A DNA stretch of 64,000 nucleotides from contig OX638351.1 of the NCBI GenBank assembly GCA_951813565.1, positions 3,680,001 to 3,744,000 of the forward strand, given 5' to 3'. Position numbers: made by a program. This document shows positions 20,801-23,800 of this stretch, in pieces; position 1 is the stretch's first letter, and every line of letters starts with the position of its first letter. The DNA comes from an uncultured Poribacteria bacterium. GTDB taxonomy: Bacteria; Poribacteria; WGA-4E; WGA-3G.

Positions 20801-23800
20801 TTTTTGCACCTTTGCCAATAGTCGGCATACTTCACAGGTTCATAGTTTTTACGTTGTCCGATGAAAGTTTTTTTACAGCAAGCCAATTCCTTGCCGTTAT
20901 CAATTGGATAGCCCCATACACGACATATCACTGGGCGATGTTCATAAACAGAGCATACTCCACCAATAAGCATCGGACATTCGCCAGAAGTTTTCCCTTT
21001 GACCACTTCAATCGCTTCTATACCTGAATCTTTTATCATATTTTCAGCGGTATAACCCTCCGCTTCTAATACTTTGATAGTCCGCTGTGCTTTTTGACGA
21101 ATATGTTCGCGTATCTGTTTTGGAAGTGCGTCCAATGCGGTTTTGAGATCGCGTGCTTCCACTTCACTAATTGGTATTGTTGAAGTGTTAAGGCAGCATT
21201 GAAAACAATTTGTCGGACAAGGAACCCGACCGTATTCTTCTCGTACCCGTTGCACATCTCTATCAATTTCCGCAACAAGTTCGTGATAGACAGTCATTAC
21301 ATGTTCAATTACCTGTTCAGGTTGCGTTTCCATCTTGTTTCTCCTCTTCAACAACAGTAAACTCACAGATAGCATGTCGAAAAACTACGACCTTAGAACC
21401 GTTTTTCAACACCATTTTGATTTCATACGGACTGATCCAGTCAACTGTGCCTTGAAAAATTTCGCCTTCACGAAGGATTATTTCAATTGAATTCCCATCT
21501 TTCCGAGCGTGCCGAATTGTTTCTGGATCAATGATATATCCTTCATCTTGAGAGAGAGCGGGTTTGAGTTGTTTCGCTTTAATGTCTTCATTATAGCGAA
21601 GAAGCGCAATTACGTTTTCTGCGTCAACGTCCTTATAGCAATACTTCACCTCAGTTTTTGGTACAATTTTTTCCTTACCGTTACAATTAAGTGTTAATCC
21701 TGAAAGCGTCATTTCTAACACAATAGCAGGCAATTGTACATCATTATAAAGCGCAAAAAACATCGGTGTTTCAAAATTAATTTGCTTAAGGATATATAGG
21801 TCACCGAAACTAAGTTGTCTGGAAGTTTGTTCCTTCTCTTCTGTTACCGTTTCGGTTTGTGTGGTAGAACTTTCACTTTGAGGTCGTTTTCGCGATTGTT
21901 CTTGTGTATATTTAGCATTCGTATTAGAATCCTTGTCCTTTGTTTTATCGGAAAACGACTTATCTTCATCAAAGAACTGATCCTGATTTTGGGCTGGAAA
22001 TCCAGAGTAGCCGCGTGGAATAATAGTTTTACCTTGTCGTAACCACCTTCGTTCTGTCGGTGTTAGCAACACTTCAACGTTTTTAGCGACTAAACCTTTT
22101 TCGCCTTCAACAACGCTATACTTTACGCGTTGCCCAACCCGAAGTTCCTCGTATTCTGCATACTTAATCGCGGAACTATGTAAGAAGACATCTTCCTCAC
22201 TGCTATCTTGTGCGATAAATCCGAATCCTTTATCCAAATTGTAATACTTAATTCGTCCTGTAGGCATTATCTGCTCCTGGGTTTTTCCTCCGCATCGGGA
22301 AGATGCCTATAACCATTCGCGTTCCTGCGCCCAGCATTTAATTGTGGCTGCCTCAAAATGATTAAAAATCTGAAAACAACAAAATAGTACACAACGAGAA
22401 TTTGCCTCGCAACTGAATTGTATGTTTCTTTTGACATAACAACACTTTTTATCTATAATGTAAGCATAGACGTTCTGAACGTTTAAACGTAAATGTCTAC
22501 TTTTTTCTATATCGAATCTTGCTGGAAACAAGAAAACATTTCAAGGCATACTATAGTACATCATAATCTAATGTATTTGTCAAGTATGATTTTTTATTTA
22601 ACATAATTATTCCATAATTCAACCACTTTGACGGAAAACAACTTTCCACCTTGCCCGACCACTACACTGCATCTTAGGAAACAACAAACTAATACCATTT
22701 CTATTTGATCGCCTTTCATTTACAAAAAACACGTTTGTAGTCGCGCAATTCATTGCCAAATCAACGCCAAATGCGCGTTTGGCATTTGGCGCCTCGGACA
22801 TTCTTCAACTCAGCTTGAACCGATAATTTCACAATGAAGTCTCATTTTTGAGAAATGGTATAATACCAAATTACCCTAAATCGTAGGGGCGGGTCTCTGT
22901 GCCCGCCCTTACCATCGGCAATGAAAACAATGCAATTCTCGTTAATTTGGTATAAGATGTCGCGAGCTGGAGCTCGCTCCTACAGGAAGAAGGAAGTAAT
23001 ACCAAATTACCCTAAATCGTAGGGGCGGGTCTCTGTGCCCGCCCTTACCATCGGCAATGAAAACAATGCAATTCTCGTTAATTTGGTATAACTCATTCCT
23101 AACGCCTACTATTCAAAAGTCTACATAAGGAGAATTTCATGGCAACAGATTTGACACATCACATTCAGTCTATCCGTTTAGTTGATACACATGAACACAT
23201 GCGGCGTGAAAACGACTGGGTAGAGAATGGTCCCGATATCTTGCAAGACCTATTCGGAAATTATGTGCCAGCAGACCTACATACCGCCGGTGCTACGCCA
23301 CAGGCAATGGAAAATCTGATGGACTCATCTAAAGACATCAAGTCACGGTTTGAAGGTGTCCGAGAAGCATGGGAAGCGACACAATTTACTGGATACGGCG
23401 AAGCAGTCAGTCTTATCGCTAAACATATCTACGGACTTGACGAACTGACTGGTGATGGACTTGCTCAGGCACAAGATAAACTCAAGACAATTCGCACTCC
23501 CGGAAAACGTTATCATATTTTACACGACCTTGCGAATTTAGACCATATCCAAACAGATGATTTCAGCTGGCCGTGTACCCTCGACACCTCTGGCCCCGAT
23601 TTTTTCTTATACGATCTTTCATGGGCAACTTTCTGCAATGGTCAAATTGATCCGAATGCTATCCATGCTGAAACGGGTATTGAAGTCAAGGACCTCGCGT
23701 CGTTGAAAAGCGGCATGGAGGCGATTTTTGCCAAACATGCCTCCTGCGCAATCGCAGTAAAAGCACAACACGCTTACAACCGTACACTTCACTGGATCGA

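Follow-up and report, generated by a model that had tools for sequence, protein, structure and literature searches.

A cold-shock domain fused to a tandem pair of diverged Hfq folds in Poribacteria

Results

The locus and the layout of the fused gene

The window analysed here, a stretch of 64,000 nucleotides, carries a gene for a fused protein whose features are collected in Table 1. The reading frame starts with ATG, with AGGAG upstream. Pfam finds the cold-shock domain (CSD) at residues 3-65 (E 7.9e-20), and its Hfq_1 and Hfq profiles match residues 252-307 at E 1.4e-4 and 7.9e-4, which is under the curated cut-off; the protein falls short of the family thresholds both for Pfam Hfq (19-21 bits, cut-off 27) and for TIGR02383 (18.9, cut-off 61.7). 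A full-length model (pTM 0.55) contains the CSD, the helix that follows it and, at residues 150-306, a double-Hfq module, with pLDDT below 50 for residues 83-149 and no sign of the CSD docking on the module. The linker at residues 91-149 is only 29% identical among close relatives, and its length varies from 16 to 78 residues across relatives. The first-pass annotation had proposed a CSD, a linker and two consecutive Hfq-like domains in a single chain, and this is borne out by Pfam, AlphaFold2, Foldseek and VIA-align, so that the architecture, as judged from sequence matches and predicted structures, can be regarded as confirmed.

Table 1 Features of the fused gene and its neighbour, in positions of the window.
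Feature	Position	Strand	Basis
Fused gene, 316 aa: CSD, conserved helix, disordered linker, double-Hfq module	21317..22267	-	ORF, Pfam, model
Cold-shock domain, residues 1-67, KGFGFI and VFLH intact	22067..22267	-	Pfam PF00313, Foldseek, alignment
Conserved post-CSD extension, residues 68-90, helix 70-77	21998..22066	-	Identity, codon differences, model
Disordered linker, residues 91-149, S/T/Q/E-rich	21821..21997	-	pLDDT, identity
Hfq-fold unit 1, residues 152-213	21629..21814	-	Model, structure and profile comparison, conservation
Structured 30-residue inter-unit linker, two helices	21539..21628	-	Model, family alignment
Hfq-fold unit 2, residues 244-307	21347..21538	-	Pfam, profile, structure comparison
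Shine-Dalgarno-like AGGAG ahead of ATG	22271..22279	-	Sequence
CxxCxxCC (YkgJ-like) gene, downstream of the fused gene	20728..21333	-	Pfam PF03692, E 3.8e-5

The CxxCxxCC gene probably begins inside the fused gene, with an overlap of 17 bases at the stop of the latter. It holds the same position in most loci of family f1, in L031 (f3) and in the f4 loci, was not found in the f2, L032, L033 and L048 loci, and forms one read-through ORF with the fused gene in L009; we regard it only as a linked neighbour. The scanned neighbours were CxxCxxCC, GBBH-like_N, ferredoxin, LpxI and amidohydrolase genes, with no flagellin gene among them. Conservation of gene order is confined to parts of the order, and 31 neighbouring ORFs from distant loci had no theme in common that could serve as a functional clue. 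Rfam gave no match in the window, and promoter- and terminator-like sites near the gene occur at chance level (6 against 6.6 expected and 2 against 2.3, respectively).

There is a hint that the fused gene is transcribed. Contigs of relatives from one sponge metatranscriptome cover 21339-21844 and 21971-22483, and an exact 293-base RNA piece from another run covers 21192-21484. Three RNA runs contain only 5-9% of the words; these runs are contigs, so the level cannot be read from them.

The cold-shock domain and selection on the gene

The CSD superimposes on CspE and CspA with an rmsd of 1.5-1.7 (Foldseek), and residues K13, G14, G16, F17, I18, F28 and H30 are invariant in 39 alignment rows. 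It has the fold of the CspA family together with KGFGFI and VFLH, the RNP1 and RNP2 motifs, but it is not the stand-alone protein of about 70 residues that defines that family, being part of a 316-residue fusion. The extension at residues 68-90 shows 96% mean identity in 120 close relatives, and 85 synonymous against 2 non-synonymous differences. Counted in the same way against 10 close orthologues, synonymous/non-synonymous differences amount to 151/31 for the CSD, 178/57 for unit 1, 131/79 for unit 2 and 63/240 for the disordered linker; as read from these codons, the gene is under purifying selection. None of the 17 f1 genomes has a CSD match in an ORF shorter than 188 residues, and in 5 of the 17 the fused gene is both the only CSD match and the only Hfq-like match. 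CSDs are also joined to unrelated proteins in these genomes, e.g. Csm2 and GmrSD.

Both units adopt predicted Hfq folds

AlphaFold2, given a 32-row alignment, modelled the module with pLDDT 93.9 and pTM 0.89 as two units of a helix and five strands, and all 27 Foldseek matches listed are Hfq, in line with what the first pass had described for the C-terminal part. Each unit thus has, in the predicted model, the Sm fold of one helix and five bent strands. In VIA-align, unit 1 fits Caulobacter Hfq over 63 residues with Z 7.9 and rmsd 1.1 (a Z below 8 may reflect a common arrangement), and unit 2 fits Synechocystis Hfq over 60 residues with Z 8.3 and rmsd 1.0; the first seven rows are all Hfq and the next fold follows at Z 6.2. 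Structural identity to solved Hfqs is 9-26%. Unit 2 also matches Hfq by profile at E 1.5e-7 to 3e-6. For unit 1, which had initially been assigned by topology only, the profile reaches just E 0.14 against the PDB, and the connection runs through L074, a single-domain protein of the sister class: HHalign joins it to the unit 1 profile with probability 97.1 and E 5.9e-11, and L074 itself matches Caulobacter Hfq at E 2.9e-5 and scores above the Pfam Hfq cut-off. Structure and sequence together largely remove the doubt about unit 1. The two units match each other with probability 50 (E 1.6e-4). With two unlike units per chain the protein could form a ring of three chains at most, and not the six identical subunits of Hfq.

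A different kinship is suggested by predicted shapes, since the top feature matches in the ESM Atlas (0.90) are clusters of Flag1_repress (PF03614), aligning over 145 residues with TM 0.77/0.70. Salmonella FljA, seemingly shaped as two Sm folds, blocks translation of fliC mRNA (PMC2652032), and the fused protein might likewise repress the translation of one or a few mRNAs in a sequence-specific manner. We consider this highly improbable: PF03614 has no match in this genome, among family members just one in a set of 32 and one in a set of 37 reach it (E 0.06-0.09), no conserved target gene or RNA lies nearby, and the near-universal retention of a single copy fits a general role.

One of the two Sm-Sm contacts is conserved

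In Sm proteins beta4 pairs with beta5 of the next subunit, and assembly nearly always uses this pairing (PMC3710371). We compared the conservation of strand sets taken from the literature in clusters of at least three sequences. Unit-1 beta5 and unit-2 beta4 are better conserved than unit-1 beta4 and unit-2 beta5 in 21 of 21 clusters, which are related and not independent. The CSD-fused ortholog cluster gives 0.82 for the first contact, whose "internal" strand set is raised by the RNA-contact residues R56 and H57, and 0.39 for the second, around a module mean of 0.61. In the single-domain control both edge strands are conserved (0.92 and 0.93). The helix, strand 1 and strand 5 of unit 1 are near-invariant and its strand 4 edge is polar and variable; the second-contact strands as a whole are polar and vary even inside f1. 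Hydrophobic residues occupy positions 52/53/55 at frequencies of 0.29/0.22/0.08 in unit 1 against 0.99/0.89/0.97 in unit 2 (184 modules).

The single-domain type, compared by summed BLOSUM over 67 sequences, resembles unit 1 in the helix, strand 1 and strand 5 (18.5, 9.7 and 16.6; unit 2: -6.4, 4.0 and -2.3) and unit 2 in strands 2-4 (29.9, 13.2 and 7.2; unit 1: 0.4, 6.1 and 2.6). Covariation in 470 modules, a shallow set (effective number 174 for 158 columns), points the same way: the top inter-unit pairs all run from unit 1 to unit 2 (60-30, z 7.8 and partly clade-driven as the strongest pair; 60-28, 6.9; K56-H57, 5.2), with mirror pairs at z 1.3 at most, the donor and acceptor lists having been picked after the first covariation result was known. 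Taken together, sequence and models indicate that a single, strongly conserved Sm-Sm contact holds the module together, between the helix and strand 5 of unit 1 and strands 2-4 of unit 2. That only this one of the two ring contacts is conserved is, on the alignments, a new observation; we infer from the alignments and models that it is the contact internal to the chain.

These data bear directly on whether the protein forms a ring. Three chains could build a pseudo-hexamer of alternating units with three uridine pockets and three tethered CSD arms, acting as a true Hfq substitute that anneals sRNAs to mRNAs while the CSDs melt structure. Each unit fits Hfq to about 1 A, the module matches two-domain Atlas models with full Pfam Hfq over 129 residues (TM 0.74), and 11 of 41 class genomes (f1: 6, f2: 5) have no Hfq-like match besides the fused gene. 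A contact may also diverge after duplication and yet persist, and in a subset of 122 modules, noisy at an effective number of 58, some top pairs fall on the second contact (U1:55-U2:11, z 4.1; U1:55-U2:59, z 4.0). Unit 2 retains hydrophobic I7, L12, A15 and F62 and a conserved Arg at 56, as a ring needs, and backbone pairing could still close a ring with one side conserved and the other not. Synechocystis Hfq, with Arg at position 55 and Ala at 57 in our alignment, forms hexamers (PMC5379935). Against a ring stand the second-contact strands, which lie below the module average in the focal cluster and below the first contact in every cluster, as well as the site losses described below, and we hold a ring, the main rival of a ring-less reading, to be possible though doubtful. 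Predicting a complex of three module copies gave a score of 0.01 with controls that did not fold, and was weighed neither way. A charge swap between unit-1 53 and unit-2 63, spotted by eye and compensatory in a ring, was dismissed at a correlation of -0.13.

A composite pocket, half lost in this gene

The Hfq pocket consists of Q8, F42, K56 and H57, with stacking between adjacent monomers (PMC5379935). At the equivalent positions unit 1 has G, S, K and T and unit 2 has D, Y, R and H, so that neither has the full set. In the module family a composite pocket of Y189, K204, R243, Y281, R297 and H298 appears instead, split between the units; the His57 equivalent lies in unit 2 in 277 of 293 CSD-less modules and in unit 1 in 15. 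Two of these six residues are missing from the fused gene: serine stands at 189 in place of the family Tyr (F42 in Hfq) and, in the inter-unit linker, glycine at 243 in place of the family Arg. The gene keeps K204 (Hfq K56) in unit 1 and, in unit 2, Y281 (F42), F296-R297-H298-A299 (YKHA), W277 and R255. From the alignments, the family retains one uridine-type pocket, half lost in this gene, which is likewise new here.

Neither unit retains the distal Tyr25 site (A172 and I264 stand there), and the position has no aromatic consensus in either. At the rim, where Hfq has the basic patch R16 and R17, unit 2 has R255 and K256 and unit 1 has I163 and N164. The module is acidic: of 18 CSD-fused orthologues, 14 have one with a net charge of -3 to -9. 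Families f1, f2 and f4 and part of f3 have an eroded pocket, which together with the loss of Tyr25 and the acidity speaks against a ring that works as Hfq does.

The same losses could be read as a CspA protein with a tail, in which binding to single-stranded RNA or DNA is left to the CSD and the module, no longer an RNA binder, is a platform for protein interaction or dimerisation. Y189 and R243 are kept in none of 120 close relatives, f2 and f4 also lack H298 or Y281, CSDs are added to unrelated proteins here as mentioned above, and Sm folds may be non-RNA modules (PMC3710371). K204, Y281 and H298 are nevertheless 100% conserved and R255 95% conserved in f1, and the pocket is kept in the CSD-fused f3 members L032-L034 and, outside the phylum, in P0194 and P0215, with CSD-fused L045 (f6) keeping four of the other pocket positions. 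We find a module that leaves RNA alone unlikely.

Distribution of the module

Conservation across the class, as first claimed, holds for the module, present in 38 of 41 class genomes, but not for the CSD fusion, found in 30 of these 38 plus one broken copy. The suspicion that some relatives lack the CSD proved right for f5, where the module stands without it in 5 of 5 genomes that have it. Phylum-wide the module occurs in 118 of 121 genomes, and in 0 of 3 of the other class. Six-frame profile scans of the genome recovered only the fused gene and a real paralogue without CSD (C1:3134096-3134629), agreeing with its earlier description as the sole other Hfq-like gene; a Pfam Hfq scan adds one match at E 0.22.

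The module extends to other phyla, and it is joined to many further domains, among them GmrSD nucleases (1 to about 4 copies), HTH, S1, HU, UvrD-GrpE and exonuclease, a range of partners and copy numbers that points to use as a free-standing domain. The idea that multi-module GmrSD fusions are natural single-chain hexamers is ruled out by these copy numbers. Caldithrix abyssi is a cultured carrier (Calab_0471). A search for a mobile origin of the family gave 0 phage matches and one weak partial plasmid match.

Discussion

Sequence and models together show that the CSD is intact, that the linker is flexible and that two Hfq folds are paired within one chain. Our best reading, to which we give about an even chance, is a regulator that binds RNA, in which the CSD works and the two Hfq units form a pseudo-dimer that probably builds no ring. 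The module would have arisen by duplication of a single-domain Hfq-like protein like that surviving in the sister class, after which one subunit contact was kept and the other decayed; it would therefore most likely be a closed two-subunit slice of the Hfq ring. Such a slice would carry one composite pocket corresponding to a single uridine pocket on the proximal face of Hfq and suited to hold a single U or an RNA 3' end. In this gene S189 and G243 leave the pocket half lost, whereas the CSD hardly varies. Most of the capture and melting of single strands therefore probably falls to the CSD, and the module, through R255, K256 and W277 at the rim of unit 2 plus Y281, R297 and H298, may contribute a second, weaker contact to RNA or protein. 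The protein would then act post-transcriptionally as two tethered units. The earlier proposal that two classes of RNA chaperone are joined here is right about the architecture, and its picture of a normal Hfq chaperone is weakened by the losses at Tyr25, the contact and the pocket.

In f1 the fused protein probably also fills the role of CspA, since no stand-alone CspA gene was found there. Going further, we tentatively suggest that the ring-less slice, with its one composite pocket for a uridine or an RNA 3' end, is a portable domain in bacteria of many phyla, that in this Poribacteria family the CSD-fused form serves as the general RNA chaperone of the cell and replaces both CspA and Hfq, and that FljA belongs distantly to the same fold class.

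Hfq function is understood through its six-fold ring. If our reading is true, a conserved family with one contact and one pocket shows what a minimal Hfq unit can do and makes it testable how far RNA recognition by Hfq needs the ring. It would also put a name to a widespread domain with only weak scores in Pfam and NCBIfam, provide lineages in which Hfq seems to be missing (this Poribacteria class, some Calditrichota) with a candidate factor binding sRNAs or 3' ends, and raise the question of why GmrSD nucleases carry repeats of the module. If a ring does form, it would be an undescribed CSD-armed Hfq of three chains.

Comparison with known systems

With Hfq (PF17209, TIGR02383; PDB 1kq1, 6gwk, 3hfo; M. 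jannaschii MJ1435, 2qtx) both units share the Sm fold, and F42-, K56- and H57-equivalents are found in the module family. The differences are two unlike units in one chain, a 30-residue structured linker, an N-terminal CSD, no Q8 or Y25, a pocket split between units and a decayed second contact. Proteins of the CspA family (PF00313; CspE 3i2z, CspA 1mjc) share the fold of the CSD at 42-47% identity with the nucleic-acid-binding motifs intact; here the CSD is not alone: a conserved helix, a long linker and the module come after it.

An Hfq with two domains is in itself already known. It is reported from Zymomonas and six other Sphingomonadales, with a three-chain ring proposed but untested there (PMC2877685), a precedent that favours a ring here as well. 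These proteins also have two Sm-like domains per chain, but are given there as 60% identical to E. coli Hfq, whereas the units here are strongly diverged and asymmetric, come from another Hfq-like subfamily and are attached to a CSD. The single-domain Hfq-like proteins of the sister class (L071, L074; 71 homologues, some named 'RNA chaperone Hfq') are the closest sequence relatives of unit 1 and resemble unit 2 in strands 2-4, but consist of one domain of about 85 residues with both edge strands conserved and no CSD. FljA (PF03614) acts on mRNA translation (PMC2652032) and its predicted shape matches across both units in a model-to-model comparison only, with no match at the sequence level; FljA has no CSD, and its flagellar context is missing here. 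Finally, PMC3710371 describes augmented Sm proteins: a zinc-finger-Hfq from a Thermococcus plasmid joins, as here, an Sm/Hfq fold to a nucleic-acid-binding domain, and the monomeric Sm domain of Edc3 is a precedent for the fold without oligomerisation, both having a single Sm unit with other partners, in archaea and eukaryotes.

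Architecture and surroundings of the focal gene

Pfam places a cold-shock domain (CSD) at residues 3-65 of the focal protein (E 7.9e-20); its Hfq-type matches at 252-307 are weak and below cut-off (E 1.4e-4 and 7.9e-4). In the full-length AlphaFold2 model, built from 39 rows, the CSD is followed by a helix (70-77), a disordered stretch (83-149) and a folded block (150-306), and the pTM of 0.55 points to the CSD and the block being two independent folded parts. When the block was modelled alone from 32 rows, it reached pLDDT 93.9 and pTM 0.89, with two units of one helix and five strands separated by a two-helix linker, and all 27 Foldseek matches listed were Hfq. 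Pfam, AlphaFold2 and Foldseek thereby recover the single chain of CSD, linker and two Hfq-fold units described in the first-pass annotation. It is clear that this architecture is real and conserved. Codon differences from 10 close orthologues indicate purifying selection across the gene except in the disordered linker, and the CSD motifs are invariant.

RNA contigs touch the gene, which hints at transcription, short of proof, and an Rfam scan of the 64-kb window gave no match. Neighbouring genes give no clue to the function of the focal gene: the CxxCxxCC gene that overlaps it, and the GBBH-like_N and ferredoxin genes convergent with it, are conserved in parts of the order only. Other features seen in the window and in related loci are collected below.

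Table. Location of the focal gene and of features observed alongside it
Feature	Location	Strand	Remarks
Focal ORF	window 21317-22267	minus	316 aa; AGGAG upstream of ATG
Perfect TTGACA-17-TATAAT site	window 22431-22459	plus	Directed away from focal gene, ~680 bases ahead of next ORF; could drive a small RNA or long leader
Intergenic direct and inverted repeats	window 22690-23090		Very high depth in run X4; resemble multi-copy REP-type elements
Short tandem repeat	window 26511-26830		Repeated peptides in overlapping ORFs; between IF-2B-family gene and next gene
Paralogue without CSD	C1:3134096-3134629
Csm2 fusion (locus L086)	G000:C1:1208246-1208896	minus	Type III-A CRISPR subunit; RAMP gene adjoins
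Orthologue in relative G001, the sixth f2 genome	L040:3449-4477	plus	Several frameshifts; pseudogene or sequencing error
Fused gene plus downstream CxxCxxCC gene in relative G029	L009:856-2496	minus	One 547-aa read-through ORF; real fusion or assembly error

Both units resemble Hfq

Unit 2 matches solved Hfqs in sequence (from E 1.5e-7) and superposes on Synechocystis Hfq in VIA-align with Z 8.3 and rmsd 1.0. Unit 1, previously assigned from topology only, superposes on Caulobacter Hfq with Z 7.9 and rmsd 1.1 over 63 residues and on S. aureus Hfq with Z 7.5 and rmsd 0.9, the best non-Hfq row being at Z 6.2. Its profile has a sole match at E <=10 in the PDB, S. aureus Hfq at E 0.14, and aligns in register with unit 2 (probability 50). 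A single-domain Hfq-like protein (L071, L074), found in two of three sister-class genomes searched and scoring above the Pfam cut-off for Hfq with 30.1 and 27.5 bits, matches both Caulobacter Hfq (E 2.9e-5) and the unit-1 profile (probability 97.1, E 5.9e-11, 58 columns), and therefore provides a sequence bridge between the two. With this bridge and the superposition, unit 1 is a predicted Hfq fold on firmer ground than topology.

Two sister-class genomes, G002 and G004, each carry two kinds of single-domain Hfq-like genes, type A (L071, L074) and type B (L072, L075, L076), whose products might form mixed rings. Positions 53 and 55, which we take to have a role in the Hfq interface, and our presumed Hfq numbering beyond Q8, Y25, F42, K56 and H57 were compared with the S. 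aureus alignment only.

One conserved subunit contact and a second, probably decayed

According to the accessible text of PMC3710371, Sm rings assemble by contacts in which strand 4 of a subunit meets strand 5 of its neighbour. A three-chain ring of double units needs two such contacts. In 21 of 21 clusters with at least three members (among 64 clusters from 311 non-redundant modules), conservation is higher for unit-1 strand 5 with unit-2 strand 4 than for unit-1 strand 4 with unit-2 strand 5. The CSD-fused cluster scores 0.82 for the former pair versus 0.39 for the latter, with a module mean of 0.61, and both edge strands are conserved in the single-domain control (0.92 and 0.93). This single-domain type is a mosaic, with a unit-1-like helix, strand 1 and strand 5 and unit-2-like strands 2-4. 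Strand 4 is polar in unit 1 and hydrophobic at the same place in unit 2. Across 470 modules the covarying inter-unit pairs all run one way, the mirror pairs having z <=1.3, and a subset of 348 modules, the larger of the two examined, repeats this; the data are shallow, and the donor and acceptor lists were drawn up after the first covariation result.

We take these sequence patterns as signs that one Sm-Sm contact is conserved, the other decayed and the ring given up. A three-chain ring of modules, against which the weaker conservation of the second-contact strands argues, is a less probable but serious alternative, since a few second-contact pairs covary in the smaller subset (122 modules), unit 2 retains a canonical-looking helix and strand 5, and Synechocystis Hfq, which in the alignment lacks Tyr55 and His57, forms hexamers (accessible text of PMC5379935).

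A putative composite RNA pocket

In Hfq the F42-type rings of two neighbouring monomers sandwich each uracil, together with Q8, K56 and H57, the last reading the 3' hydroxyl (PMC5379935, same text). Among 293 modules without a preceding CSD, unit 1 keeps Y42 in 253, K56 in 266 and H57 in just 15; the linker Arg (243) is kept in 262, and unit 2 keeps Y42 in 248, R56 in 269 and H57 in 277. The top covarying pairs include Y42-Y42, K56-H57 and R243 with unit-1 positions 42, 56 and 57, and the whole reads as one putative composite pocket at the unit 1/unit 2 junction. Neither unit has the distal-site Tyr25.

At the six pocket positions the focal protein carries S, K, G, Y, R and H, neither Y189 (unit-1 Y42) nor R243 is kept in any of 120 close relatives, and families f2 and f4 show a different erosion of the pocket. 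It is intact in three loci from relatives (L032-L034), in this genome's paralogue and in CSD-fused proteins from outside the phylum. That the protein is a CspA whose tail is a scaffold that does not bind RNA appears improbable to us. The most likely reading, to which we give about an even chance, is an RNA-binding regulator in which the CSD would capture and melt single-stranded RNA; a second contact would come from a ring-less Hfq pseudo-dimer, flexibly tethered to it. What is established is the fold, with its conservation and distribution; the RNA binding, the oligomer state and the role are inferred.

Distribution of the module and of the CSD fusion

The module query matched in 118 of 121 phylum genomes (the source records label the relatives Candidatus Poribacteria) and in none of three outside the class, which the first-pass annotation names WGA-4E; in these three a wider profile gave single-domain matches and no double module. 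Module and CSD were both looked for in one sample of 41 class genomes, of which 38 have the module, including 33 of 33 of good quality, and 30 of these 38 have the CSD in the same ORF. The class-wide CSD-Hfq fusion proposed earlier thus stands for the module and fails for the CSD. By family, same-ORF fusions occur in f1 (17/17), f2 (5/6), f3 (4/4), f6 (2/3), f9 (one) and f11 (one, partial at a contig end); the CSD is absent from the module ORF in f5 (0/5), f10 (0/1) and one f6 genome that is 76% complete. In f5 an Arg-rich tail occupies the N-terminus of the protein instead, and a CSD is missing from all 20 second copies fetched.

No ORF shorter than 188 aa has a CSD match in any of the 17 f1 genomes, short CspA-like genes being present in f2, f3, f6 and f9-f11, and in f1 the fused protein probably stands in for CspA too. 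The sole other CSD of this genome is fused to Csm2; its sole other Hfq-like gene is the paralogue, and the earlier count of two such genes was borne out.

The module as a wider family

Searching 1.84 billion representatives with a profile gave 681 clusters at E <=0.001, the weaker of which may include ordinary Hfq, and 338 at 1e-10. Of 30 proteins looked up, 11 could be given names, which include Caldithrix abyssi Calab_0471, Xenobia and Thermodesulfovibrionia; structure neighbours in the Atlas are chiefly hypothetical proteins of Thermodesulfobacteriota and Myxococcota. Across the phylum to which a Caldithrix genome belongs, the module is patchy (9/61). CSD-fused proteins also occur in one MAG each of Deltaproteobacteria and Pseudomonadota. 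In a quick tree of 84 modules, with weak deep support, the order's CSD-fused orthologues form one group (support 96), those from outside the order are placed elsewhere, and the CSD label changes 7 times, implying several gains or losses.

Pfam partners in 60 scanned of 150 listed representatives were CSD (17), GmrSD (10), HTH_3 (4), UvrD, GrpE and S1 together (2), and HU, RNase H-like exonuclease, HEAT and DnaJ_C (once each). Long proteins carry 1 to ~4 modules. Several (P0123, P0150, P0162, P0170, P0177, P0207, P0230, P0258) have GmrSD restriction-nuclease domains followed by these modules and often C-terminal CSDs; here the module is possibly a nucleic-acid-sensing add-on to a defence nuclease. 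Long ORFs with the module occur in f1 genomes, with long ORFs in relatives G019, G021, G023, G024 and G026. In Caldithrix-like genomes a peptidase M28 gene (one scanned) directly follows the double-Hfq gene (L087, L089, L091, L092, L095, L096, L097).

Comparison with known systems

Searches on Poribacteria Hfq, Hfq-CSD fusion and two-Sm-domain trimer found no such fusion or family described in the open-licence literature, and supplements or subscription-journal surveys could list it; the paper listed for Poribacteria Hfq, PMC11607428, has FlgV as its subject. The architecture is apparently undescribed and built from known folds. FljA blocks fliC translation (accessible text of PMC2652032). Its predicted structure in the Atlas matches that of the module, and we consider an FljA-like specific repressor very improbable. 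FljA itself has a two-Sm-fold look in predicted models (ESM Atlas clusters with PF03614), of which we found no description among titles and listings. The accessible text of PMC3710371 describes zinc-finger-Hfq fusions and a monomeric Edc3 Sm domain, and 'cold shock' does not occur in it. A two-domain Hfq is known from Zymomonas and six other Sphingomonadales, for which a three-chain ring was proposed (PMC2877685, accessible part). Compared with Hfq, the focal protein departs from several defining features, and from its sequence and models it would act like an RNA-binding protein of the Sm/Hfq and CSD types. Of greater interest is the module, a double-Hfq domain that is widespread and shows signs of a ring abandoned.
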